A DNA stretch of 64,000 nt, from assembly GCA_937952265.1 (NCBI GenBank), contig CALFYW010000016.1, forward strand, positions 334,661-398,660. Direction: 5' to 3'. Below are positions 2,264 through 19,001 of this stretch, in pieces (the stretch's first letter is position 1; the number at the start of each line of letters is the position of its first letter). Source of the DNA: an uncultured bacterium. GTDB lineage: Bacteria > Patescibacteriota > Minisyncoccia > Phycocordibacterales > GCA-2401445. The translations under genes were made by a program, and so were the position numbers. The notes under the pieces were generated by a model. That model was given only the letters and a program-made list of their open reading frames with translations. It did not search any database and was not told the origin of the DNA.

Positions 2264-3517
2264 CTAGATTTTTTTATTCCTTTTAAGGAAAGGGATCAGT
2301 GATGCAATAGGAACCACCTCCTGTGAACGTGTCTCCATATTGCGGACGATCACCGTGTGATCCATTGCTTCTCGCTGGCCAATGATAATGGTGTAAGGGA
2401 TTCGCATTCGCTCAGCAACGGAGAGTTGTCCGCTGATACGGTCACGGCTCAGTGTTTGATGCACGGGGATTTGCGCTTCGCGTAAGAGCTCGAGTGTGCG
2501 CAGGCTCGCAAGCTTTGCTTCAAAACCAAGTTGGATAAGAAATATTTTTGGAAGAGCGATTTTCTTTTGAGCACCCTTTTTATCTTTTTTCTTCGATGGT
2601 ATTGGAGCCGTAAGGCAGAGAGAAATTCCCACCGCATTAATTGGTTTTCTGCTTCCCATCTTTCGGGCAAGTTCGTCGTATCTCCCTCCTTGTGCTAACA
2701 GGGTGTCACTTCCTTTGTCTTCATCATTGATTGCCGTTCCGTCGTGAATTTCGAACACTGTTTTTGAATATGAGTCGTCAGCTCCAAGGAGGATGTTGTT
2801 GATTCGGTAAGGGATCTCCATGCTTTCAAGATATTCGAGTACTTGGGTAAAGTGAGTGCGACTCTGTTCATTGAGAAAGTTGATTGGCACGGGTGCGTTC
2901 TCATGCACGGGCGCGCATTTTTCATGCGTGCAGGTCATTACCTTGATAATGTCGCGTCGAATCAAGTCTTTACACGATGGCGTAAGCTCGTGCATGCTTC
3001 GGCGGTAATAGGCGTGGGCTTCTTTAAGGAAACGCACACGCGATTCAGTATCTCCAAGACTATTGATTTCTACGAATAAATTTTTATATCCATGATCTTT
3101 AAGAATAGAAATGGCAACCTGAATGATGATTGCTTCCGCGATGCTCTTTGAGACATGGATGATATCGAGACCGAAAAACCGAAATGAGAGCTTTCCCCCG
3201 CAGACCGCATTATCGTATGAAGGATTATGAAAAAGTAATAATGGAGGAGGAAGCTCGTGCAATGCATCTTCAAGATACACTTTTAAGACACAGAGACGTT
3301 CGGTGTGATACAAGGGCATTTTGCCTCGAGGAAGCACAGGTGCTGTTTTTTTATTTTGTCGTTTAGCTTTCTCTTTTTGATTGATTCGATGTTTTTCGGT
3401 AATTGCCCGAAGGGAATGAAATCCATAGAAAGAAGCAATTTCCGCAGCAGATTTATTAAAGATTTCCTCATTCGGCGTGCGGCTTGTGGTAGTGTGAGGG
3501 CGCGTTCTTTTGTTCAT
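2264..3517 (-). CDS. hisS: Histidine--tRNA ligase (class II aaRS) with a divergent, shortened N-terminal region
   Basis: Contains EINSLGD, GGRYDEL and a C-terminal anticodon-binding domain (...IPYTIIIGQREAMDHTVIVRNMETR...). The N-terminal YGF motif is present, but the motif-1 region appears replaced by a K-rich segment. Confidence 0.75.
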   Translation of the reverse strand: MNKRTRPHTTTSRTPNEEIFNKSAAEIASFYGFHSLRAITEKHRINQKEKAKRQNKKTAPVLPRGKMPLYHTERLCVLKVYLEDALHELPPPLLLFHNPSYDNAVCGGKLSFRFFGLDIIHVSKSIAEAIIIQVAISILKDHGYKNLFVEINSLGDTESRVRFLKEAHAYYRRSMHELTPSCKDLIRRDIIKVMTCTHEKCAPVHENAPVPINFLNEQSRTHFTQVLEYLESMEIPYRINNILLGADDSYSKTVFEIHDGTAINDEDKGSDTLLAQGGRYDELARKMGSRKPINAVGISLCLTAPIPSKKKDKKGAQKKIALPKIFLIQLGFEAKLASLRTLELLREAQIPVHQTLSRDRISGQLSVAERMRIPYTIIIGQREAMDHTVIVRNMETRSQEVVPIASLIPFLKRNKKI

Positions 3518-3520
3518 AGA

Positions 3521-4120
3521 CTATTGATTTTGATTATCATGAGTCGTCCCAGGGAAGAGGGAAAGGGATTCGAGCGGATATAAGCGCAAGAGTGCTCGAC
3601 CAATAATATTCTCTTTTGGAAGAGCTCCCCATCGGCGTGAATCAAAACTCACATCCCGATTATCTCCCATTACGAAATACTCGTTATCCTCTAGCCTCAG
3701 TCGCATCTGCTGATAATCGGTTTTGTTTTCAAGAAGATAGGGCTCTTTGAGTTCGAATCCGTCAGGGTGTTGTTCGTTTTGAATAATGATTCTATTTCTT
3801 TGAACGATAATGGTGTCGCCAGGAACTGCAATAATACGTTTAATAAAGAATTTTTCAGGTTCAAGCGGAAAACGGAAAATTACCACATCACCACGATTGG
3901 GTTCGTAGAGATGATAACCCAGTTGCTCAACTACTAAATAGTCCTGGTCTTGGAATGAGGGTTCCATTGATGCACCATCGACCACAAAAGGAGTAATGAT
4001 GAAAAGTCTGATGGGGATAATAACGGCGAGTGCAAAAATAGTGAATCGAAAAAGATCAATGAAAGAATTTTCTTTTTTGAAAGCCTGTTCATTAGGTGAG
4101 AGACCCTCGTATTCCATCAT
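3521..4120 (-). CDS. lepB: Signal peptidase I
   Basis: ORF 3521..4201 (-) has GASMEPS (catalytic Ser box) and GDNRDVSFDSRRWG (box E). Start trimmed to the internal MMEYEG, just before the TM anchor. Confidence 0.8.
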   Translation of the reverse strand: MMEYEGLSPNEQAFKKENSFIDLFRFTIFALAVIIPIRLFIITPFVVDGASMEPSFQDQDYLVVEQLGYHLYEPNRGDVVIFRFPLEPEKFFIKRIIAVPGDTIIVQRNRIIIQNEQHPDGFELKEPYLLENKTDYQQMRLRLEDNEYFVMGDNRDVSFDSRRWGALPKENIIGRALLRLYPLESLSLFPGTTHDNQNQ

Positions 4121-4908: not shown

Positions 4909-6045
4909 TTATTTTTCGGCGTGTGTTTTCTTACTCTTGGTTGCCGCGGTTACGTATGAGAGTGCCATTTTTTGTTCCTTAGGATCAAAGAGGGTAATCG
5001 TAAATTCGTAAGTTTTTCCAAGTTCAAGTGTTTCTCGTAATTTTTCTTCACTTCCGAATTCTGAAATATGTACCAGCCCCGCAATACCTTCCTCAATACT
5101 CGCGAGCGCACCATGTTTGTTATATTTAATAATCACCCCATTAACGGTGTCATCTTTATGATACTTCTTCTCTGCTCCAAACCATGGATTTGGTTTGAGT
5201 ATCTTGATAGAGAGCGAGATCTTCCCTTCCTTTACCTCAATAATTTTTGCCTGTACTTTGTCGCCAATTTTAAACATGGATCGAGGATTTTCAACCAGCG
5301 ACCAATCAATCTCTGAGATATGTACGAGACCCTCTAATCCTTCATCGATTTTGACAAAGATTCCAAAATCAACAATGCCGGTAATGACTCCATCAACGAC
5401 ATCTCCCACATTAAATCGGTCGACCATTTCCTGGCGGTCTTTTTGTTCAGGGCTTTTTTCAGAGAAAATAAGTTTTCCTTCTTTAGGTGAGGCACCGATA
5501 ATCGTGACTGATAACTTCTCTCCTACGAGCTGTTTTAGTTCCTCGAATATCTTTTCTTTGTCACCATCTTCTACTCTCGGATAATGTTCTGATTTGAGTT
5601 GTGACGCGGGCAAAAAGCCGGTAATACCCTGCCATTCAAGAATAAGCCCGCCCTTATTGGCTTCCTTTACCGAAAGCTCAATAATTGCTTTCTGTTGCAT
5701 GAGGTCTTCAGCCTCTCCCCAAATAATTGCTTGTCGTGCTTCCCGTAATGATAATTCAATATATCCGTCCTCATTCGTAGTGGTATCTACTACCTTTGCC
5801 GCAATGGTGTCATTAACGTTAACACGCTTAATCACCTCACGCGCATTCATAAACTCTTTTCCGTAAATGATACCCGTGCCAAACGGTGTCAGATCAACAA
5901 ATAACGCATTTTTATCAACGGCAATAACTGGACCCTCTACCATATCTCCTTCTGCTGGAGGTGTTGGACTTTCTGCGAGGATCTGCTCCATGAGAGCGGT
6001 ATTTCGCGGGTCTGTGGTTAGAGGATTTTGGACTAATGTATTCAT
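4909..6045 (-). CDS. rpsA: 30S ribosomal protein S1 (multiple S1 domains)
   Basis: Repeated S1-domain motifs: GxV..I..FGxFV, and two copies of GLVHISEI/GLVHISEF. Confidence 0.85.
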   Translation of the reverse strand: MNTLVQNPLTTDPRNTALMEQILAESPTPPAEGDMVEGPVIAVDKNALFVDLTPFGTGIIYGKEFMNAREVIKRVNVNDTIAAKVVDTTTNEDGYIELSLREARQAIIWGEAEDLMQQKAIIELSVKEANKGGLILEWQGITGFLPASQLKSEHYPRVEDGDKEKIFEELKQLVGEKLSVTIIGASPKEGKLIFSEKSPEQKDRQEMVDRFNVGDVVDGVITGIVDFGIFVKIDEGLEGLVHISEIDWSLVENPRSMFKIGDKVQAKIIEVKEGKISLSIKILKPNPWFGAEKKYHKDDTVNGVIIKYNKHGALASIEEGIAGLVHISEFGSEEKLRETLELGKTYEFTITLFDPKEQKMALSYVTAATKSKKTHAEK

Positions 6046-6224
6046 GTAATTTTTTGTATGCTACAAGATCTACGGTTGCTTAAAACGTAAGCGTGCGCAG
6101 GGGTTACCTTGCGAGCATGGTAAATAAGAGTGAATAAGTATACCCAATCTTTTCTAGTTTGTCTATAGGTATACGAGAGTGAATAGACTGTTTTTTCTTC
6201 TGTTTTATGCTATGATGCGCCTTA

Positions 6225-6854
6225 ATGGTGATTACCTATCACGGTGTTGGTTTTGTGAAGGTTCAATTTAGCGATATTACGATCGCGGTGAATCCTATTG
6301 CAAAAGAATCAAAACATAGAAGTCCTAAATTTGGGGCTGATATTGGGATTGTCTCTCTCGACCACCCCGACTGTAATGGTGTTCCCCAGCTTGCCTATGG
6401 GGGGAAGGAACCTTTTTTGATACAAGGTCCGGGTGAGTATGAAGTAAAGGGAGTCTTTATCAAGGGTTTTCCAGGAGTTTCTCATTATGGTGGGAAAGAG
6501 ATCATGAATACCATTTACGCAGTTTCTCTGGAAGGTATGAATCTTTGTTTTCTTGGTGCGCTTGAAGATCCGGCACTTGAAGGAAAAACGAAAGAAGCGC
6601 TTGATGCGGTTGATATTCTGTTTGTCCCTATTGGTGGCGAAGGAGTGCTTTCTTCTCAAGTGGCATATAAGCTGAGTGTTTCGTTGGAGCCTAAGATTAT
6701 TGTTCCGATTTTTTTCGAAGGCAAGAGCGCGCTCGATGCATTTAAGAAAGAGGGTGGAGTAACCACTAGCGAGCCGGTTGAGAAATTAACCGTTAAGCGA
6801 AGAGATCTCGAGAGTAAGGGTGGAGAGATCGTGGTACTTACCTCACTCTCATAA
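6225..6854 (+). CDS. MBL-fold metal-dependent hydrolase (UPF0173-like)
   Basis: N-terminal MVITYHGVGFVKVQF..IAVNPI and a SLDHPDCNG metal-binding-like segment. ~209 aa, typical size for this family. Confidence 0.6.
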   Translation: MVITYHGVGFVKVQFSDITIAVNPIAKESKHRSPKFGADIGIVSLDHPDCNGVPQLAYGGKEPFLIQGPGEYEVKGVFIKGFPGVSHYGGKEIMNTIYAVSLEGMNLCFLGALEDPALEGKTKEALDAVDILFVPIGGEGVLSSQVAYKLSVSLEPKIIVPIFFEGKSALDAFKKEGGVTTSEPVEKLTVKRRDLESKGGEIVVLTSLS

Positions 6855-10337: not shown

Positions 10338-11623
10338 GCACCTTTCGTATTATTTTTACGGTTGTAATAATTGCGTTTGCCGTATTGGGCATGATCGTTA
10401 TTGCGACTTTTCGAGGTGGAGATACCGCGGCATTTGGAAATACAAATGGTGCCGTGGTGGTATGGGGAACTCTACCACAGGAGATGATGGGCCCTTTTGT
10501 TGCGACACTTCGCCAACAGTTTGAAGGGTTTGAGGTAACCTATGTTGAAAAACAGCCCGAAGCTTTTGACCAAGAGCTTGTTGAAGCAATCGCGAGCGGG
10601 AGGAGCCCGGATGTCGCCCTTTTGCCGAGCGAGCTCATCCTTCGATTTGAAGATAAGGTTTCTATGATCCCCTATGATTATTTAAGTGAGCGTGATTTTC
10701 GTGATGATTTTATTGAAGGAAGCGAAATTTATCTTTCTCCGCAAGGTATTATAGGGCTCCCATTTGTGGTAGACCCGTTGGTGATGTATTGGAATCGAGA
10801 TTTATTTGCGAATGCACGAAAAACATTACCGCCTACTACCTGGGAAGAAGTAAAATTGCTGGCTCGAGAGATGACGATTCAAACTCAGGGAGTCATTACT
10901 ACTTCCGCCATCGCGCTTGGGGAATGGAGAAATATTACCCACGCAAAAGAAATTTTCGCGCACCTCTTGCTTGCCGGTGGCAACCCTATTGTTTCTCGAA
11001 CTTCCCAGGGTCTTACCAGCGTATTGGGAAACTCATTTAATAAATCCCCTATTCCTGCAGAAGCGGCGCTTATCTTTTATACCGATTTTTCAAACCCCAA
11101 TCAGTTGGTGTATTCCTGGAATCGCGCGCTTCGTCCCTCTCGCGAAATGTTTCTCGCGGGGAAGCTCGGAATCTATTTTGGCCTAGGGAGTGATGTGCTC
11201 GGGCTCCATGAAGCAAATCCGAATCTTAATTTTGATGTTGCCGAGATACCGCGCACGCAGGGTGCTGACAGTGCTCGTGGTTTTGGAAAATTCCATGCGT
11301 TTTCAGTGCTTCGTTCCGCACCAAACCCTTCGGGCGCGTTTACTGCAGCGCAGGTCTTTACGAGCCCTGAAGCAGGCACGCTGTTTACTACCTACAGCAC
11401 ATTCGCACCCGCGCGCCGCGCGCTTCTCGCTGAGACCCCCACTGATCCGTTTCGTGCAAGTTTTTTCCGCGCGGCAATTATCGCGCGCGCATGGCTTGAC
11501 CCGAACCCACAAGAAAGCGACAGTGTCTTTCAAGAGATGATTGAGAGCGCGTCTTCAGGAAGCGCGCGTATTAACCAGGCAGTATTGCGCGCGCATGAGG
11601 CGCTCCGCCGCTTATTGCAGTAG
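10334..11623 (+). CDS. Extracellular solute-binding-protein-like (family 1 SBP fold), N-terminal TM anchor
   Basis: N-terminal TM helix, then VVVWGTLPQE..., a sugar-SBP-like beta-alpha pattern. No permease or ATPase partner genes nearby. Confidence 0.6.
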   Translation: MSTFRIIFTVVIIAFAVLGMIVIATFRGGDTAAFGNTNGAVVVWGTLPQEMMGPFVATLRQQFEGFEVTYVEKQPEAFDQELVEAIASGRSPDVALLPSELILRFEDKVSMIPYDYLSERDFRDDFIEGSEIYLSPQGIIGLPFVVDPLVMYWNRDLFANARKTLPPTTWEEVKLLAREMTIQTQGVITTSAIALGEWRNITHAKEIFAHLLLAGGNPIVSRTSQGLTSVLGNSFNKSPIPAEAALIFYTDFSNPNQLVYSWNRALRPSREMFLAGKLGIYFGLGSDVLGLHEANPNLNFDVAEIPRTQGADSARGFGKFHAFSVLRSAPNPSGAFTAAQVFTSPEAGTLFTTYSTFAPARRALLAETPTDPFRASFFRAAIIARAWLDPNPQESDSVFQEMIESASSGSARINQAVLRAHEALRRLLQ

Positions 11624-11627
11624 CATT

Positions 11628-12011
11628 ATGAGATATTTCTCTATTTTATTTCTCCTTTTTCTTCCGTATAGTGCGCGCGCGCAAACAGGGCTCGTGCCGT
11701 GCAACGGAACTAAAGAATCTCCCTGTGACTTTAACGCGCTTCTCATGTTGGTCAATAACCTGCTTGATTTTGCCATACTTATTGCAATGCCGATTGCGGC
11801 AATCATGTTTGCGTGGGCGGGATTTCGATACCTTACCGCGGGCGGAGATACGTGGCGTATTCAAGAGACCCATGAGATATTTAAGAAGGTGGGTATCGGG
11901 CTTTTAGTGGTGCTTTCCGCGGTGCTTATCGTGAAAACCATTCTTGTTGCCCTCGGAAATCCCGATGTGATCCCTTTCTTTATTGGATTTTCGGAAAATC
12001 GCATGAGCTAA
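11628..12011 (+). CDS. VirB2/TrbC-like (T4SS-pilin-like) small protein, paralog 1
   Basis: Signal peptide (ARA|QTG), then two hydrophobic helices around a charged loop: ...AIMFAWAGFRYLTAGGD..HEIFKKVGIGLLVVLSAVLIV. Start chosen at the internal Met after the upstream stop. Confidence 0.6.
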   Translation: MRYFSILFLLFLPYSARAQTGLVPCNGTKESPCDFNALLMLVNNLLDFAILIAMPIAAIMFAWAGFRYLTAGGDTWRIQETHEIFKKVGIGLLVVLSAVLIVKTILVALGNPDVIPFFIGFSENRMS

Positions 12012-12025
12012 TCTTAAATTATTTT

Positions 12026-12418
12026 ATGACACACTTTTTTTATCGGTATCCTCGGGCACTCGTCGTGATGTTTGTCCTATTATTGATGATCTTGCCACAA
12101 GTAGTTGGGGCGCAACCCCCTTTCCCTGGAGAACAATCACCGACGACCATCCAAAGCCCACTCGCTGGCAATATCGATTCACTCCAAGAGCTTGTCGAAA
12201 AAATTTTGCGGGATATCGTGATACCAATCGGCACGCCAATTGCGGTATTAATTATCATTTATACCGGTTTTCTTTTTGTTACCGCGCGTGGCAATGTAGA
12301 GAAGCTCCAACGAGCGCGAACGGCATTTTTTTGGGCTATTATTGGCACGGCTATTCTTCTCGGATCATGGGTTATTGCTGAAGTGATTGGCGGTACAGTA
12401 AACGAGCTCACAAATTAA
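12026..12418 (+). CDS. VirB2/TrbC-like small protein, paralog 2
   Basis: Signal peptide (VGA|QPP); core IAVLIIIYTGFLFVTARGNVEKLQRARTAFFWAIIGTAILLGSWVIAEVI. Confidence 0.65.
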   Translation: MTHFFYRYPRALVVMFVLLLMILPQVVGAQPPFPGEQSPTTIQSPLAGNIDSLQELVEKILRDIVIPIGTPIAVLIIIYTGFLFVTARGNVEKLQRARTAFFWAIIGTAILLGSWVIAEVIGGTVNELTN

Positions 12419-15778: not shown

Positions 15779-16180
15779 TTATCCCTCGGTTCCCGTTCCG
15801 TGTAATTGGCCGAGTTTTTCAAATCCTCTCACCAAGTCGGCAGCGGTAAAGGGCTTTTGGATGAACACATCTGCCTTAGAGTTTGAAATGATTCCACCAC
15901 CACTCAAGAGAATGATGAGTGGTCCACCTCCTCCACATGCGGCCCTCACCTTTTCGATGAGCCCTTCACCGTTGAGGACCGGCATGTGATAATCGGTAAT
16001 GATAATCTGGATTGAATCACGGTGTTCTTCCCACAGCATGAATGCTTCGTGCCCATTTTGTGATTCAAGAATAGTAACATCTGAGGGTATACGAACTTCC
16101 TCCCTTTTGATAATAAACTGAAGTAGCGCCAGTACCGATTTTCGTAGCATCTCTTGATCGTCCACAACCAGTATCTTCAT
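15779..16180 (-). CDS. Stand-alone response-regulator receiver domain (CheY-like)
   Basis: MKILVVDDQEMLRK...IITDYHMPVLNGEGLI...FIQKPF: phospho-acceptor Asp and the conserved K. No output domain. Confidence 0.8.
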   Translation of the reverse strand: MKILVVDDQEMLRKSVLALLQFIIKREEVRIPSDVTILESQNGHEAFMLWEEHRDSIQIIITDYHMPVLNGEGLIEKVRAACGGGGPLIILLSGGGIISNSKADVFIQKPFTAADLVRGFEKLGQLHGTGTEG

Positions 16181-16292
16181 CGCTTCATTCCTTTCGTTTG
16201 TTATTTACCCCTCGCACCTTTCTCTTAAAAGGAGCTCTACCATTAACTATAGCATATTATATCAAAAAGTCAATATCTACGATAGATGAGTC

Positions 16293-16445
16293 TGGTGGGC
16301 GAGGAGAGACTTGGTCACGAGTTCCCTCGCTTTGCTTCGGGACTCTCGACCCCAGCTCGCCTCCTTCGACTCACTCCGTTCGCTCAGGATGGCTCCGCTT
16401 TTCAAGTCTCTACGAAAGCAGATAAATCCGCTTTCTCCTCGCCCC
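16293..16445 (-). ncRNA. Structured ~153-nt element with a tRNA-like acceptor/T coaxial helix plus encoded CCA; function unknown
   Basis: Read on the minus strand, the 5' end GGGGCGAGGAGA pairs with the 3' end TCTCCTCGCCC-A-CCA in an 11-bp helix. The last 20 nt are identical to the 3' end of the adjacent tRNA-Leu genes. Internal hairpins are present, but D- and anticodon arms are not conserved. Confidence 0.3.
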
Positions 16446-16464
16446 AAAAGAACAGTCACTCAAG

Positions 16465-16546
16465 TGGGCGAGGAGAGACTTGAACTCTCACGGATTGCTC
16501 CATACGCCTCTGAAGCGCACGCGTCTACCAATTCCGCCACTCGCCC
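16465..16546 (-). tRNA. tRNA-Leu (anticodon CAG), long variable arm
   Basis: Hand-folded: GGGCGAG-TG-GCGG-AATTGGTAGA-CGC-G-TGCGC-TTCAGAG-GCGTA-[var]-GAGAG-TTCAAGT-CTCTC-CTCGCCC-A. CCA is not encoded. Confidence 0.85.
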
Positions 16547-16571
16547 ATTATTGTCCTGTAAAAAACATGTA

Positions 16572-16656
16572 TGGTGGGCGAGGAGAGACTTGAACTCTCA
16601 CTCCTTACGGAACACGGTCCTAAGCCGTGCGCGTCTACCAATTCCGCCACTCGCCC
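16572..16656 (-). tRNA. tRNA-Leu (anticodon TAG), CCA encoded
   Basis: Hand-folded cloverleaf; anticodon loop CTTAGGA. Acceptor/T arms are identical to tRNA-Leu(CAG). Confidence 0.9.
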
Positions 16657-16839
16657 TCGTATAAGCAAAGTACTTTGTTCCTGTAATTCTCTCTTCGCTC
16701 GTGTCCTCCCACCAGGCTCTCGAGCTACACTCGCTGGTAACTTTCGATTGAAGCTCTTGCGCTCGTTTCAATAATGAAAGTTCTTTTTCGCCCTAACACA
16801 GGTAACGCAGGTTACCTGCTCTGCGCGAATACCTGCGTG

Positions 16840-16912
16840 TCCGCCCACCAGGGCTCGAACCTGGGACCGTTCGCTTAAGAGGCGACTGCTCTACCAACTG
16901 AGCTATGGGCGG
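16840..16912 (-). tRNA. tRNA-Lys (anticodon CTT)
   Basis: CCGCCCA-TA-GCTC-AGTTGGTA-GAGC-A-GTCGC-CTCTTAA-GCGAA-CGGTC-CCAGG-TTCGAGC-CCTGG-TGGGCGG-A. There is a G27·A43 mismatch in the anticodon stem. Confidence 0.8.
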
Positions 16913-16963
16913 TTTTTCAAACTCTTACTGTACCATATTACAGAGCTTTTTCTACTTTTATCG

Positions 16964-17048
16964 TGGTGCCCGAGGTGGGAATCGAACCCACACTCCTTAC
17001 GGAACTCGATCTTAAGTCGAGCGCGTCTACCAATTCCGCCACCCGGGC
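16964..17048 (-). tRNA. tRNA-Leu (anticodon TAA), CCA encoded
   Basis: GCCCGGG-TG-GCGG-AATTGGTAGA-CGC-G-CTCGA-CTTAAGA-TCGAG-[var]-GTGGG-TTCGATT-CCCAC-CTCGGGC-A-CCA. Confidence 0.9.
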
Positions 17049-17086
17049 TTGTATTAACGAAATGTATCTATGACGAAAATTTCGTG

Positions 17087-17158
17087 AGGCCACGGCGAGA
17101 ATCGAACTCGCGTGTAGAGCTTTTGCAGAGCTCTGCCTTACCACTTGGCTACGTGGCC
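17087..17158 (-). tRNA. tRNA-Cys (anticodon GCA)
   Basis: GGCCACG-TA-GCC-AAGTGGTAA-GGC-A-GAGCT-CTGCAAA-AGCTC-TACAC-GCGAG-TTCGATT-CTCGC-CGTGGCC-T. Confidence 0.9.
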
Positions 17159-17484
17159 TGTGTATCTTCGTTGCTGAGGCTTTCAATATTCTGTCGGTTC
17201 TTTTCTCCAGCGTCAACCATAACCGTGAAGTGGGGGATACGGACGAGCTTGCTATGTTTTTTAAGATATGCCTGTAGATCTCGACGTCGTCGATTAAGGA
17301 ATGCCTCTACTTTTTCTTCGTAAGTATTAGGAAAGACGCTCACAAAGATCGTTCCTTGAGCGAGGTCGTCTGAAAGTACGACGCGGGTTACCGTAATAAG
17401 CGATTGGCCACTTGATTCCCGTTGGAAGAACGTAGCGGCGGCTTCGCGGATTACTTCTTGGCTTCGTGCGTGGGTAAAGCTCAT
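17149..17484 (-). CDS. rbfA: Ribosome-binding factor A
   Basis: MSFTHARSQEVIREAAATFF...VTRVVLSDDL... is the RbfA KH-like pattern. Located immediately downstream of infB, as usual. Confidence 0.8.
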   Translation of the reverse strand: MSFTHARSQEVIREAAATFFQRESSGQSLITVTRVVLSDDLAQGTIFVSVFPNTYEEKVEAFLNRRRRDLQAYLKKHSKLVRIPHFTVMVDAGEKNRQNIESLSNEDTQAT

Positions 17485-17489
17485 AGCCT

Positions 17490-19001
17490 CTATTTTACAA
17501 CAGTACGTACTGCTTCAATGACGTCTCCTGTTGCAATCTCTATTTTAGCATGTATTTTCATTCCGAATTCAGTGCCTGATTCATGGACTGAGGTTGCTCG
17601 CGCTTTCTGTTCTTGGAGTTCAGTAACGGATCCCCTCCCAATTTCAATGGCGCGCCGCAAAATTTTAATCGGTGCATTAACCTCAATAGTTCCAGAGATG
17701 AGTTTTGCCCCAAGCACTTGCTGGTCTTTTGCTTTACTGAAGCATTTCAAAATTTTGGCGCTTCCCAATGTCTCCTCGACCTCGTGCCGAGGGGTTCGCT
17801 CTGAAGCGAGTTTTTCTAGAAATTCGGTAAGCCGGTAGATGATATCAAATGTCTCAATCTGGATACGCTGGCGTTCCGCCGCAGCTCGTGCTGAAGCATC
17901 AATTTTTACATTAAACCCAATGACTACCGCCGTGCTATCCGCGCCCGCGTGCTTGATATCATTTTCAGTAATGGTACCCACTCCTTCCGCGAGAATAGAG
18001 AAGGTAACCTTTTCAAGGGTAATCTTTTGTATCTGGTGTTTTATCGCTTCAATGCTTCCTCGGGTATCAGTTTTTAAGATAAGCGGAACCGCAACAGTGT
18101 CTCCTTCGGATGGGGTCTCCGTTTTCTGTTGTGTAAGAAGCGTGTCTTTGTGTTCTGCCGCGTATCGCTCGGCTTCTTTTTTGTTTTGGAAGGAGTAGAA
18201 CATGTTTCCTACTTCTGGAGACATATTAAAACCAGTAAGCTGTATTGGGTTTGAAAAGGTAGCGCTCGTAATTTTCTTTCCAAGAAAATCCTCCATGACA
18301 CGAACGGGTGCAACTGCATGCTGGGAAACTACCGCCATTCCTTGGGCGAGTGTTCCGTCTTTAATGATGAGTGTCGCGGCAATTCCTTTTTTGGGATCAC
18401 AGTTGGTTTCAATAACCACTCCTTCTGCGGGTTTCTCTGGGTTTCCGGTAAGTTCCTCAAGGTCGGCGACAAGAAGGATCATAGAAAGAAGCTCTTTTAC
18501 ACCCTCACCGGTTTTTGATGAAAGGGTAACCACTGGTACGCTGCCACCAAGCCCTTCAATAAAAATTCCGTGTTCAGCGAGTGAATATTTAACCCGATCC
18601 GGATCAGCTCCAGGTTTGTCTATTTTAGTAATGGCAACAATATGCGGTGTATTGCTTTCAAGAATCGCTTTGTGCGCCTCGAGTGTCTGTGGCTTAACCC
18701 CATCATCAGCTGCAATAACCAGAATGACGATATCAGAGGCATGCGCACCGCGTGATCGCATGGCGGCAAAGGCTTCGTGCCCTGGGGTATCAAGGAATGT
18801 TATCTTTCTCTCTTTTCCTTCGTCATTGAGATGGATGACTTCGTATGCAGCAATGTGTTGCGTAATACCACCCGCTTCATGTTCGGTTATTTTGGTTTTG
18901 CGGATATAGTCGAGAAGTGTTGATTTGCCATGATCGATATGCCCCATAATGGCAACAACGGGAGGCCGCGGTATTGCGTTGTGTGTTTTTTCTTTCGTCA
19001 T
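17490..19001 (-). CDS. infB: Translation initiation factor IF-2; compact form lacking the long N-terminal region
   Basis: AIMGHIDHGKSTLLD (G1), DTPGH (G3), NKID (G4) and the C-terminal beta-barrel domains. 503 aa. Confidence 0.9.
   Translation of the reverse strand: MTKEKTHNAIPRPPVVAIMGHIDHGKSTLLDYIRKTKITEHEAGGITQHIAAYEVIHLNDEGKERKITFLDTPGHEAFAAMRSRGAHASDIVILVIAADDGVKPQTLEAHKAILESNTPHIVAITKIDKPGADPDRVKYSLAEHGIFIEGLGGSVPVVTLSSKTGEGVKELLSMILLVADLEELTGNPEKPAEGVVIETNCDPKKGIAATLIIKDGTLAQGMAVVSQHAVAPVRVMEDFLGKKITSATFSNPIQLTGFNMSPEVGNMFYSFQNKKEAERYAAEHKDTLLTQQKTETPSEGDTVAVPLILKTDTRGSIEAIKHQIQKITLEKVTFSILAEGVGTITENDIKHAGADSTAVVIGFNVKIDASARAAAERQRIQIETFDIIYRLTEFLEKLASERTPRHEVEETLGSAKILKCFSKAKDQQVLGAKLISGTIEVNAPIKILRRAIEIGRGSVTELQEQKARATSVHESGTEFGMKIHAKIEIATGDVIEAVRTVVK

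Follow-up and report, generated by a model that had tools for sequence, protein, structure and literature searches.

What is a 153-nt segment that ends like a tRNA, lies directly behind two tRNA-Leu genes and yet contains no tRNA? The segment occupies 16293-16445 of the window (the whole 64-kb stretch of DNA analysed here), and the initial annotation had offered two readings of it: a tRNA-derived, mini-helix-type non-coding RNA, or the scar of an element that integrated into a tRNA-Leu gene.

The segment behind the tRNA-Leu genes

Read on the minus strand from 16445 to 16293, the segment starts GGGGCGAGGAGA and ends TCTCCTCGCCC-A-CCA (full run GGGGCGAGGAGA...TCTCCTCGCCCACCA). These ends, together with the 11-bp terminal helix, the discriminator A and the CCA described earlier, were all confirmed, GGGCGAGGAGA (16444-16434) being 100% complementary to TCTCCTCGCCC (16307-16297) across an interval of 126 nt. 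A second stretch, the anti-T AGAGACTTGAA (16411-16401), matches the tRNA-Leu T-loop/T-stem TTCAAGTCTCT in reverse complement and extends the terminal helix to 11 + 7 bp, with a small hairpin in between. The features of the region, in the order of transcription, are the following:

16657..16838, minus strand: spacer from tRNA-Lys(ctt) to tRNA-Leu(tag), holding an anti-T-like TTAGGGCGAAA, AACTTT../..AAAGTT, CGAG-TGTAG-CTCG and then a copy of the tRNA-Lys 3' end
16572..16656, minus strand: tRNA-Leu(tag), a paralogue; its 3' end matches the 3' arm of the element exactly, CCA included
16464..16546, minus strand: tRNA-Leu(cag), directly upstream of the element (ARAGORN; Rfam tRNA, 51.3 bits)
16482-16465, minus strand: nt 56-73 of tRNA-Leu(cag), the copy matched by both arms
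3' end of tRNA-Leu(cag), minus strand: ..CGCCCA-CTTGAG, read from the sequence as encoding no CCA
16446..16463, minus strand: 18-nt spacer TTGAGTGACTGTTCTTTT between the tRNA and the 5' arm, with no terminator-like hairpin
16445, minus strand: unpaired G preceding the 5' arm
16434..16444, minus strand: outer part of the 5' arm, GGGCGAGGAGA, reverse complement of the tRNA-Leu acceptor 3' strand and part of the T stem (nt 62-72)
16413..16433, minus strand: small hairpin AAGCGGA-TTTA-TCTGCTT, splitting the 5' arm into anti-acceptor and anti-T parts
16401..16411, minus strand: inner part of the 5' arm, AGAGACTTGAA, reverse complement of the tRNA-Leu T-loop and T-stem 3' strand (nt 54-64)
16354..16400, minus strand: first half of the core, with joiner A, P2 5' strand AGC, GGA, variable hairpin 1 (GCCATCC...GGAGGC), GAG and P2 3' strand GCU
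16314..16353, minus strand: second half of the core, with the GGG joiner and the P3 hairpin GGUCGAG..(GAGUCCC-loop-GGGAACUC)..CGUGAC
16296..16313, minus strand: 3' arm CAAGTCTCTCCTCGCCCA, direct copy of tRNA-Leu nt 56-73 (T-loop C56 to discriminator A)
16293..16295, minus strand: CCA after the copied discriminator, present in tRNA-Leu(tag) and not in the adjacent tRNA-Leu(cag)

The 19 nt of the 3' arm CAAGTCTCTCCTCGCCCAC recur without change at the end of tRNA-Leu(cag), and the 21 nt of CAAGTCTCTCCTCGCCCACCA, CCA included, at the end of tRNA-Leu(tag). The identity of the last 20 nt to both genes, as noted earlier, thus holds in full for tRNA-Leu(tag) only, because tRNA-Leu(cag), 18 nt upstream, encodes no CCA. 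The 5' arm is 100% complementary to the 3' end of tRNA-Leu(cag), the two being 21 nt apart. In two relatives (L003 and L007), the element stands directly after the tRNA-Leu(tag) gene.

When the segment was run through ARAGORN and Rfam, as the initial annotation had proposed, no tRNA, tmRNA or other family was detected at 16293-16445, even at E<=10. No cloverleaf with D, anticodon and T arms was reported there by ARAGORN or the RF00005 model, so the absence of D and anticodon arms from the interior was borne out; the interior is a conserved non-tRNA core. As for a tmRNA with an intact T arm, tag frame and pseudoknots, ARAGORN found none in the window and the Rfam tmRNA model did not match, and the YrlA and mascRNA models gave no match to the element either. 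The predicted fold had a minimum free energy of -71.6 kcal/mol, compared to -51.1 +/- 4.2 in 200 shuffles (z = -4.89), none of which was as stable. Two of the interior hairpins drawn earlier, AAAGCGGA/TCTGCTTT and GAGTCCC../..GGGAACTC, recur in this fold, whereas GCTTTC..GAAAAGC belongs neither to the fold nor to the family consensus described below; the GAGTCCC../..GGGAACTC hairpin is part of the conserved P3 helix. In many family members, a hairpin with a CUGC loop occupies the position within the 5' arm that the small hairpin at 16413..16433 has here; the latter may instead represent an earlier unit that was truncated, since GAGAAAGCGGA is a repeat of the junction TTGAAAAGCGGA.

A sequence search allowing up to 3 mismatches and a covariance model both returned 16293-16445 as the only copy in the 64-kb window. 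Contigs with an identical IF-2 stop at the tRNA cluster and therefore yielded no further copies, and a look-up of the downstream response-regulator protein returned nothing on record. The spacer between tRNA-Lys(ctt) and tRNA-Leu(tag), in which a 17-nt copy of the tRNA-Lys 3' end lies at 16716-16700 with 1 mismatch, probably represents the decayed remains of an element from another, related family (type B); the model of the family to which the segment itself belongs did not detect it.

A structured family behind tRNA and tmRNA genes

The segment belongs, as an intact copy, to a large structured non-coding family, here called type A, located 3' of tRNA and tmRNA genes. Each copy is made of a 5' arm (inverted tRNA copy), a three-way-junction core of ~95 nt and a 3' arm (direct copy). 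The conserved core reads ..AAR-xyC-GGA-(hairpin)-GAG-y'x'-GGG-GUCG..(hairpin)..GUGAC, and its motifs are a K-turn-like GA/GA, the GGG joiner and an invariant GGUCG/UGACC helix with a G.U pair. Type A was defined by model R1 as AAR-xyC-GGA-(hairpin)-GAG-y'x'-GGG-GUCGMG..(hairpin)..GUGAC-CRA, with xy and y'x' paired, and the window element has all of these parts. The core pattern matched once in the window and never in shuffles. Model R1 scored the window element at 71.9 bits, with the window sequence included in its seed, and a leave-one-out profile searched against the 64-kb window gave 16304-16412 on the minus strand as its sole match (E = 6.7e-10).

By a core-only pattern scan, the core was found in at least 120 metagenome contigs; it is also present in Saccharibacteria genome bins, where homologues follow tRNA-Leu (L007, L006) and tRNA-Lys (L005). 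Among the 128 core matches listed, 92 have a same-strand tRNA just upstream, with a median of 101 nt from the tRNA end to the core, and 18 amino-acid types plus tmRNA are represented at this upstream position. The 40 matches that were set aside include 15 within 260 nt of a contig end, about 6 chance matches in coding DNA and 3 located after tmRNA 3' ends. The hosts are Saccharibacteria and probably other CPR/Patescibacteria too. The family is widespread and apparently undescribed so far: no family of Rfam 15 matches the element, and a full-text literature search found no description of such elements in CPR bacteria. The scan of viral contigs produced a single match of 14 bits in G+C-rich coding DNA, which is a chance match and therefore no evidence of a phage origin.

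The P1-P3 structure is paired in 89.8% of alignment cells compared to 69.1% in shuffles (0/500) and at most 45.6% when the partners were slid, with a covariation score of 0.52 versus 0.17, and RNAalifold reported compensatory changes in 13 of 20 pairs. The xyC/Gy'x' helix with its GA/GA flanks covaries across the family (alignment columns 44-46/142-144 and 72-73/138-139), and P3 holds the invariant GGUCG/UGACC with its G.U pair (columns 147-162/176-192). The fold was assigned to the tRNA strand because of its G.U pairs. Together, covariation and G.U pairs show the structure of the element to be under selection on the tRNA strand.

The arms behave differently: the core is particular to the element, the arms to the locus. 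Nucleotides ~54-73 of the adjacent tRNA recur in inverted orientation as the 5' arm, which is often split by a small hairpin, and nt 56-73 of that tRNA recur in direct orientation as the 3' arm. Among the matches listed, the direct match to the cognate tRNA has a median of 15 nt, compared to 4 nt for non-cognate tRNAs, and reaches at least 10 nt in 58/89 cognate and 0/445 non-cognate comparisons; the medians of the inverted match are 10 and 5, respectively, and the R of GTGACCRA equals R57 of the cognate T-loop in 78 of 85 cases. The direct repeat normally ends at the tRNA 3' end. Where the tRNA and its downstream copy disagree, 22 cases have a 5' arm that pairs with the tRNA version alone, and 4 have one that pairs with the downstream version alone.

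No compensatory change was seen between the 5' and 3' arms, so the 'minihelix' may not be a selected structure. A terminal helix selected as an aminoacylatable minihelix was rejected on these grounds, and also because the G3.U70 pair of tRNA-Ala is usually turned into A-U in the element arms, as read from the sequences. Origin by reverse transcription of a mature, CCA-tailed tRNA was likewise discarded: the repeat often enters the non-CCA flank by a few nt, and the presence of CCA in both copies is mostly concordant with the gene. The mini-helix proposal of the initial annotation thus survives in that there is a selected structure on the tRNA strand, no terminator ahead of it in the window and an analogue in the RtT repeats of Escherichia coli, and fails in that the acceptor/T helix is not the conserved feature.

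Movement between tRNA genes and the readings it allows

Among the matches listed, the nearest-neighbour core stands behind the same amino-acid type in 13 of 89 cases, with 7.3 expected by chance, and close cores are found at different tRNAs (Arg versus Tyr, 96.6% identical; Glu versus Ser, 92.5%). Tandem and mixed arrays of elements are present, and in mixed arrays the decayed direct repeat is the outermost one. Among Saccharibacteria compared at the same tRNA cluster, some have the element and others lack it. Related cores behind different tRNAs, tandem arrays and element-free relatives together indicate that the element moves. One insertion lies in a topA-like ORF, where a diverged replacement 3' end encodes the same peptide and the 5' arm matches the upstream (gene) copy at 12/12 positions and the downstream copy at 9/12.

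We give about an even chance to the reading that these elements are non-autonomous mobile cassettes that target the T-loop of tRNA-like genes and duplicate or replace their 3' end. The cassette would insert between nt 55 and 56 in the T-loop of tRNA-like genes, or in T-loop-like sequences, a position that we infer from junction sequences only. The 3' part of the gene would be duplicated or replaced, leaving the gene intact, and the downstream copy, here the CCA-ending one, would be the displaced or duplicated end; in an element-free allele of the window, tRNA-Leu(cag) would end ..CGCCCACCAGACTCATC. Through its folded core, the cassette would be recognised by a factor encoded elsewhere. A Pfam survey of the whole 64-kb window detected no integrase, reverse transcriptase or transposase, and no recurrent recombinase was found within 4 kb of ~120 elements, nor any other mobility agent; the ORFs that cluster around these elements are housekeeping genes, with LAGLIDADG/HNH endonuclease-like ORFs in ~12 loci at no fixed position. 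Neither an empty-site/filled-site pair nor a circular junction was observed. The earlier idea of an integration scar holds to the extent that duplication from the start of the T-loop is an integration-type signature, which also fits the insertions of the family behind tmRNA genes and in the topA-like ORF with its replacement 3' end; the interior is neither a deleted tRNA-Leu nor a random remnant.

A bolder extension of the cassette reading, possible though rather doubtful, is that the elements form a new CPR-wide class of protein-less mobile cassettes specific for tRNA-like T-loops, in which a folded core of RNA or single-stranded DNA is mobilised in trans and the arms are rewritten for each target, as a programmable, target-templated insertion possibly shared with the mechanism of RtT. 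In a variant of it, the core may act at the GUGAC|C56 junction as a catalytic or guide RNA of a new kind. Small SRP RNA, 6S RNA and hammerhead or other known ribozymes were rejected as identities of the element, as were retron ncRNA, group II intron remnants and IS200/605 or IS110 guide RNAs: for all of them there was no Rfam match, the anatomy did not fit and a partner gene was missing.

Transcription bears directly on the alternatives. In the window, tRNA-Cys is preceded by a promoter-like site, and no terminator-like site follows through the element (0 sites in 16150-17250); with no intervening terminator, the element would be co-transcribed with the Cys-Leu-Lys-Leu-Leu tRNA cluster. The element itself does not have the G+C-rich hairpin plus U-tract of an intrinsic terminator and ends ..CCCACCAGACTC. 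In a tRNA, an acceptor/T helix with discriminator and CCA is recognised by RNase P, by 3'-end enzymes and by the CCA-adding enzyme. The window element can probably be trimmed in the manner of a tRNA, and, because its arms imitate these features, tRNA-processing enzymes should release an RNA of ~150-170 nt. Across the family, a terminator-like hairpin with a T-run stands between the tRNA and the 5' arm in 45 of 80 loci (~56% of members), which argues against routine co-transcription there and allows for single-stranded DNA instead of RNA as the active form.

An RtT-type small RNA gene that serves the host from within tRNA operons, excised by RNase P and 3'-end enzymes through its tRNA-like helix and acting for example in the stress or stringent response or by binding a tRNA-recognising protein, with its spread incidental, would account for the strong selection of the fold on the tRNA strand and for the lack of a terminator before the window element. 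It could also draw on E. coli RttR, an annotated small RNA whose 3' end is the copied CCA, and on the fact that small CPR genomes seldom retain useless DNA. The gene rttR has been reported as stress-responsive (bioRxiv 10.1101/2024.07.17.603846). We nevertheless consider such a gene unlikely, given a distribution that is patchy even when one tRNA cluster is compared between related Saccharibacteria, the occurrence of decayed copies and tandem arrays, the presence of any tRNA type upstream of cores unrelated to tRNA identity, the terminator-like hairpins ahead of the element in more than half of the loci, the terminal helix devoid of compensatory maintenance and the insertion within a protein-coding gene. 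If folded single-stranded DNA were the active form, as in integron attC sites or the CTX phage attP, the 5' arm and the copied 3' part would rebuild a duplex replica from the T-loop to the 3' end, to be exchanged with the chromosomal tRNA gene by a host or trans-acting recombinase with integron-like accumulation, and the RNA would be irrelevant. The need for both inverted and direct target copies, the better match of the 5' arm to the gene copy (the topA case and the 22 versus 4 positions) and the placement of a terminator between the tRNA and the rest of the element would all be explained, and the small size, strand-specific conservation of structure, arrays with distal decay and replacement 3' ends would fit. 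A crossover in the T-loop is moreover established for tRNA-targeting integrases such as that of phage Ms6 (PMC1762012). This mechanism appears distinctly improbable when set against the invariant or frequent G.U (G.T) pairs and the GU<->GC alternation, more typical of RNA helices, and against the lack of any recombinase linked to the elements or of circular junctions.

Control in cis of the upstream tRNA, in which the 5' arm would pair with tRNA nt 54-73 or with the decoy 3' arm in read-through transcripts and so switch tRNA folding, maturation or termination, agrees with the perfect complementarity of the window's 5' arm to the tRNA's own 3' part 21 nt away, with the single long palindrome that the 5' arm forms with the terminator hairpin in many loci (L030, L041, L006) and with arms that track the tRNA and not each other. 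It is very unlikely all the same: the conserved three-way-junction core, the tandem arrays, the protein-gene insertion and the mobility between tRNA types are left unaccounted for, sabotage of the folding of an essential tRNA seems costly, and upstream terminators would block the interaction in most transcripts. A reading of the segment as a partly duplicated, decaying tRNA-Leu 3' end, or as the scar of an integration, in which the complementarity is fortuitous and no structure is under selection, is hardly credible. The single full copy in the 64-kb window and the lack of a matching Rfam family speak for it. The initial annotation had tied this fallback to a lack of conservation and covariation in relatives, and both are clearly present: the core is kept with compensatory covariation in at least 120 independent contigs, the folding z is -4.9, the leave-one-out profile recovers the element, and arms that are perfect inverted and direct copies are not a chance outcome. 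Family conservation, covariation and the leave-one-out profile thus refute it.

Known systems and biological meaning

The closest architectural parallel is RtT (RF00391; rttR), the 178-bp repeats of E. coli tyrT/tyrV. Like the element, RtT lies directly 3' of a same-strand tRNA gene, and in its unit an interior of several hairpins is flanked by the T-stem/acceptor 3' strand of the tRNA in inverted orientation (GGGGAAGGAT) and by a direct copy starting from the T-loop (AATCCTTCCCCCACCACCA), which in E. coli covers 19 nt of the tRNA-Tyr 3' end. This layout, 3' of a tRNA with an outer helix built from inverted and direct copies of the tRNA 3' end, is that of the window element. In RtT, the Rfam consensus pairs both arms and the units are repeated in tandem, and the E. 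coli record annotates RttR as a discrete small RNA of 171 nt. The RtT junction GGAU-GAGAAG resembles the GAGAA sub-family of CPR elements. The architecture is therefore that of type A without detectable homology: the type-A model scored at most 4.7 bits on RtT, and RF00391 (gathering threshold 45 bits), which gave 133-138 bits on the E. coli units used as positive controls, had no match in 16100-17300 at E<=10 or in 10 CPR loci at E<=5. RtT units follow tRNA-Tyr only (at the E. coli locus examined), whereas type A occurs behind tmRNA and 18 tRNA types and behaves as a mobile element, and RtT overlaps a small ORF (tpr), whereas no ORF is evident in the window element.

Integrative elements that cross over in the T-loop, such as mycobacteriophage Ms6 at tRNA-Ala (PMC1762012), share with type A a direct repeat from the T-loop to the 3' end of the gene, an intact tRNA and the use of tmRNA as a target, and in the protein-gene target the upstream copy is likewise a diverged replacement 3' end. 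The window element shows the corresponding attL/attR-type repeat of the tRNA 3' part, from the T-loop on, flanking an insert. Unlike these elements, type A is a unit of ~150-250 nt with no integrase or any other gene, no integrase being found in or beside the element in the 64-kb window and no recombinase recurring in the 4 kb around ~120 elements, and it also contains a folded core that is conserved and a further copy of the target in inverted orientation, with one family serving many tRNAs. With attC cassettes and CTX attP, which are folded single-strand recombination sites, it shares structure of one strand conserved over sequence, small gene-poor units and arrays at a fixed site, and the inverted repeat would rebuild a duplex recombination site; it differs in a conserved core with frequent G.U pairs that is more RNA-like, and in the tRNA T-loop as target, and it is not known to use an integron integrase or to depend on Xer.

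Mimics of the tRNA acceptor/T-arm (minihelices, the tRNA-like domain of tmRNA, viral tRNA-like structures, YrlA) have in common with the element the terminal helix of acceptor plus T-stem, the discriminator and, here, CCA. The element, however, has no T-loop or elbow, its helix continues through T-loop nt 56-60 to ~17-18 bp and not 12, and the helix sequence is neither conserved nor kept by compensation. MITEs, REPINs and Correia-type repeats are, like type A, short, non-coding, hairpin-forming, multi-copy, non-autonomous and intergenic. In type A, in contrast, the terminal inverted repeats are copies of the target, which is strictly a tRNA-like 3' end, and the conserved part is internal; instead of terminal inverted repeats conserved among copies with short target-site duplications, as in MITEs, the arms vary from copy to copy and equal the adjacent tRNA.

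If confirmed, type A would be a very abundant structured-RNA family with strong covariation, new to Rfam 15, in a poorly understood, genome-reduced lineage. Its architectural rule, inverted and direct copies of the 3' part of the adjacent tRNA around a folded core, also describes the tyrT/RtT repeats of E. coli, whose origin and function are obscure. Such elements explain several features of tRNA clusters: odd 'partial tRNA' matches, pseudo-ends with CCA, long spacers and breaks in the assembly. They raise the question of how a gene-less element of ~150 nt re-targets among all tRNA species and tmRNA while leaving the target gene intact, and the answer could reveal a new mechanism of recombination or RNA processing.

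An element beside the tRNA-Leu genes

On the minus strand of the window, ARAGORN and Rfam place the tRNA genes in the order tRNA-Cys, tRNA-Leu(taa), tRNA-Lys(ctt), tRNA-Leu(tag) and tRNA-Leu(cag), and the last of these is followed after 18 nt by a 153-nt element (16445 to 16293, minus strand). Two stretches of its 5' arm were recognized:

16444-16434, minus strand: outer stretch GGGCGAGGAGA, full complement of TCTCCTCGCCC (16307-16297)
16411-16401, minus strand: second stretch AGAGACTTGAA, reverse complement of the tRNA-Leu T-loop and T-stem

Therefore, the 5' arm is a ~19-nt inverted copy of the tRNA 3' part, split by a 21-nt hairpin, and the 3' end of the element, CAAGTCTCTCCTCGCCCAC(CA), repeats the ends of both tRNA-Leu genes. 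The predicted RNA fold reached -71.6 kcal/mol (z = -4.9 against shuffles), and no match to tRNA, tmRNA or any Rfam family was found by ARAGORN or Rfam, even at E<=10. Arm complementarity, repeated tRNA ends and the fold bear out the initial annotation of a tRNA-like helix element beside the tRNA-Leu genes. Its claim of a 3' end identical to that of both genes holds for the repeat but not for CCA, which tRNA-Leu(cag) does not encode, and pairing of the proposed GCTTTC/GAAAAGC hairpin was not supported. The null hypothesis of a decaying duplicate with fortuitous complementarity was refuted; as the core is complete and both arms are perfect, the window copy is young or well kept.

CCA closes the 3' arm as it does tRNA-Leu(tag), and is also encoded in tRNA-Leu(taa), tRNA-Tyr and tRNA-Leu(caa), whereas the adjoining tRNA-Leu(cag) gene lacks it. 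The downstream copy may represent the original end of the gene, the present tRNA-Leu(cag) end having been brought by the element. Alternatively, tRNA-Leu(cag) may have originated between tRNA-Leu(tag) and an element already present. In relatives the element lies directly 3' of tRNA-Leu(tag). None of six related genome bins has tRNA-Leu(cag) in its syntenic cluster. Because its first 27 and last 28 nt are in common with tRNA-Leu(tag), tRNA-Leu(cag) (16464-16546, minus strand) is probably a recent paralogue of that gene.

The element is surrounded by infB (503 aa), rbfA and genes for a response regulator and an SPFH protein. The best relatives of the IF-2 (49-53% identity) are in Saccharibacteria genome bins, which also have the infB-rbfA-tRNA-Cys-Leu-Lys-Leu cluster. 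This IF-2 (17490-19001, minus strand) comprises only the GTPase, domain II and the IF-2 domain, the long N-terminal region being absent, and its length is identical in the relatives from these bins. The remaining window is ordinary chromosome (FtsA, GyrA, ClpB, MiaA, ParB, RelA/SpoT, TopA, DprA, SerRS, RNase J and others), and no integrase, reverse transcriptase or transposase was found in its 64 kb. Two neighbouring small ORFs at 11541-12418 (plus strand) match the type IV secretion pilin families T4SS_pilin and TrbC/VirB2. Independent assemblies of the same organism (Logan contigs L001 and L002, with identical infB) stop ~130 nt past rbfA, where the tRNA cluster starts, which suggests that this cluster contains repeats or varies within the population.

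A conserved core between locus-specific arms

As the initial annotation had proposed looking for, homologous elements were found next to tRNA-Leu in related genomes, 3' of tRNA-Leu(tag) in locus L007 and 3' of tRNA-Leu(taa) in L006; their arms match the tRNA sequences of their own genomes, and the interior CGGA..GAGnnGGGGTCG..GTGACC is common to them and the window element. Nothing was found 3' of tRNA-Leu(tag) in L004 and L008. A core-only pattern without any tRNA requirement, so that tRNA association is independent of it, matched once in the window, never in shuffles, and in at least 120 metagenome contigs; being strict and built from three sequences, it under-samples the diversity of this family (type A). 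A leave-one-out sequence profile gave the window copy as sole match in 64 kb (E = 6.7e-10), and the type-A covariance model, with rough E-values, detected a copy outside its seed between tRNA-Lys and tRNA-Leu in L005 (64.9 bits). The carriers of known taxonomy are the Saccharibacteria bins. The single core match in viral contigs was due to chance. Full-text literature searching found no description of the family in CPR bacteria.

In an alignment of 124 distinct type-A copies from the matches listed, RNAalifold recovered helix P2 (xyC/Gy'x'), the base of hairpin 1 and the long helix P3, with compensatory changes in 13 of 20 pairs. With P1 included, pairing extends to 89.8% of cells, compared with 69.1% for column shuffles (0/500) and at most 45.6% with slid partners. 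The covariation score was 0.52 versus 0.17, so the covariation analysis suggested at the outset turned out positive. One G.U pair is invariant and another pair is G.U in half of the copies; thus, the opposite strand would not adopt this fold. Selection has acted on the core structure as it forms on the tRNA strand, and the core sequence xyC-G-GA[stem]GA-Gy'x' resembles a tandem-GA or K-turn-like motif.

A same-strand tRNA gene lies just upstream in 92 of the 128 core matches listed, among which the median distance from tRNA end to core is 101 nt and 18 amino-acid types occur (Leu 17, Val 11, Ser 11, Arg 7, Ala 7, Lys 6, others). Forty core matches were set aside, 15 of them lying no more than 260 nt from a contig end and ~6 being chance matches in G+C-rich coding DNA. 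Among the rest are three type-A elements directly 3' of tmRNA (ssrA) ends (..GCGGGTTCGATTCCCGCCATCTCCAC) in L038, L113 and L123, with arms that match the tmRNA and 5' arms complementary to its end, and two in a T-loop-like sequence at the 3' end of a topoisomerase-I-like (topA-like) zinc-ribbon ORF in L124 (minus strand) and L131 (~3330-3800, plus strand).

The arms are a property of the locus and not of the element. Among the matches listed, the 25 nt past the core match the cognate tRNA 3' end over a median of 15 nt exactly (4 nt for non-cognate tRNAs), and direct matches of at least 10 nt occur in 58/89 cognate but 0/445 non-cognate comparisons. The inverted match before the core has a median of 10 nt for cognate versus 5 nt for non-cognate tRNAs, and in 78/85, again among the matches listed, the R in GTGACCRA is the same base as R57 in the cognate T-loop. 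The direct repeat runs from C56 normally to the tRNA 3' end, the few longer ones being tandem arrays. Over nt 56-65, tRNA and downstream copy agree at 95% of positions, and the 5' arm is complementary at ~77%. At the 37 positions of disagreement between tRNA and downstream copy, the 5' arm pairs with the tRNA only at 22, the downstream copy only at 4, both at 8 and neither at 3; in the topA case, it matches the upstream copy at 12/12 and the downstream copy at 9/12. These counts indicate an "acceptor/T minihelix" without compensatory maintenance, each arm following the gene.

In many copies, the anti-acceptor and anti-T parts of the 5' arm are separated by an additional hairpin, whose loop is often CUGC; a hairpin occupies this position in the window copy too. 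In the window, GAGAAAGCGGA of the 5' arm region (16427-16437, minus strand) repeats the core junction TTGAAAAGCGGA (16394-16405, minus strand); therefore, this small hairpin may be what is left of an earlier unit that was truncated, and not the CUGC-loop hairpin of other copies. A sub-family has GAGAA for the anti-T-loop TYGAA, e.g. GGGATGAGAAGGGCGGA (L023, L035, L062, L100, L106, L112, L125, L126). In L024, L022, L048, L063 and L117, a mini-hairpin (GYG-UACU-CRC or CAUG-UAAU-CAUG) directly follows GTGACCRA, before the direct tRNA copy.

Signs of mobility and a second core

In L003, a different core (type B) lies between arms equivalent to those of type A, and type-B-like motifs were also found in the window:

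L003 6960-7075, L006 ~6185-6240, also L117, L030, L044, L083 and others: type-B core, consisting of anti-T arm, GAA-r-ACCTTGAG, hairpin, GAAAGGTGTACTG, stem, TGTAA, stem
16657-16838, minus strand: tRNA-Lys(ctt)/tRNA-Leu(tag) spacer, 182 nt, with a 17-nt tRNA-Lys 3' end copy and type-B-like motifs
16716-16700, minus strand: the tRNA-Lys 3' end copy CCTGGTGGGaGGACACG, 17 nt

Type-B cores are also flanked by copies of the neighbouring tRNA 3' part; 13 regex matches were obtained among loci fetched for type A, with which type B often shares an array. They end in the mini-hairpin GYG-UACU-CRC or CAUG-UAAU-CAUG seen in some type-A copies. The spacer motifs are AACTTT../..AAAGTT and a CGAG-TGTAG-CTCG hairpin. 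The type-A model detected nothing in this spacer, and the equivalent one in L005, L039 and L079 holds a type-A element; the window spacer is probably an older, decayed insertion.

Among the matches listed, cores do not cluster according to tRNA: a core and its nearest neighbour belong to the same amino-acid type in 13/89 cases (7.3 expected by chance), and the pairs closest in sequence stand behind different tRNAs, with identities of 96.6% (Arg/Tyr), 92.5% (Glu/Ser) and 86.8% (Met/Val). Tandem arrays occur in L039, L016, L018, L036 and L077, and in the mixed A/B arrays of L117, L030, L044 and L083 the decayed tRNA copy is the outermost one. The ORF that precedes the element in L131 and L124 keeps a complete C-terminus (..KTIPERCSNKKCANHNPHKLEK*) and a displaced downstream remnant encodes PKTIPERCSNKSCENHNPHKIKVK*, nearly the same 22 residues, from DNA only ~70% identical, which is the pattern of an integrative element bringing a replacement 3' end. 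The junctions (tRNA GGTT|CRA.., topA GGYAC|SAA.., element end GTGAC|CRA..) would place the break at T-loop position 55/56. Integration with T-loop crossover is established for phage integrases, e.g. that of Ms6 (PMC1762012).

No mobility gene was linked to the elements among the matches listed, whose neighbours have housekeeping roles; LAGLIDADG/HNH-like ORFs were confined to ~12 of these loci, at variable positions, adjoining tRNA genes. In L003, an HNH-endonuclease-like ORF (~6015-6480) occupies the ~545-nt gap from tRNA-Cys to tRNA-Leu(taa), and L008 has a gap of equal size (5933-6481).

Relation to E. coli RtT and possible active forms

Work of the 1980s-90s described RtT as being processed from the tyrT operon; its role in the starvation response was unclear. 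At tyrT/tyrV of E. coli K-12 (NC_000913.3, 1286700-1287500; L137), four RtT units were found (RF00391, 133-138 bits), each combining an inverted copy, GGGGAAGGAT, with several interior hairpins and 19 nt copied directly from the tRNA-Tyr 3' end. As GGGGAAGGAT is the reverse complement of the tRNA-Tyr T-stem/acceptor 3' strand, ~100 nt ahead of the direct copy, the classic tyrT repeats share the inverted-plus-direct architecture, and the two arms are paired in the Rfam consensus. Although the architecture is alike, homology with type A was undetectable in both directions; the GAGAA sub-family resembles the RtT junction GGAUGAGAAG. RttR is annotated as a 171-nt RNA whose 3' end is the copied CCA. 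A recent preprint still calls the RtT mode of action unknown (10.1101/2024.07.17.603846).

A terminator-like hairpin plus T-run separates tRNA and 5' arm in 45/80 loci; none lies there in the window, where promoter-like sites were found upstream of tRNA-Cys and downstream of the element (TTGACT-16-TATAGT), the latter of which would serve the response-regulator gene. Given this placement and the arm-pairing counts, the active form could be an RNA or a single DNA strand that folds on itself, its 5' arm and copied 3' part together recreating the target site as a duplex replica.

The best-supported reading is that type A is a structured mobile element, non-autonomous and directed to the T-loop side of tRNA-like genes, with arms copied from the target. 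On the same reading, it is an architectural equivalent of E. coli RtT, yet a separate and far more widespread family.
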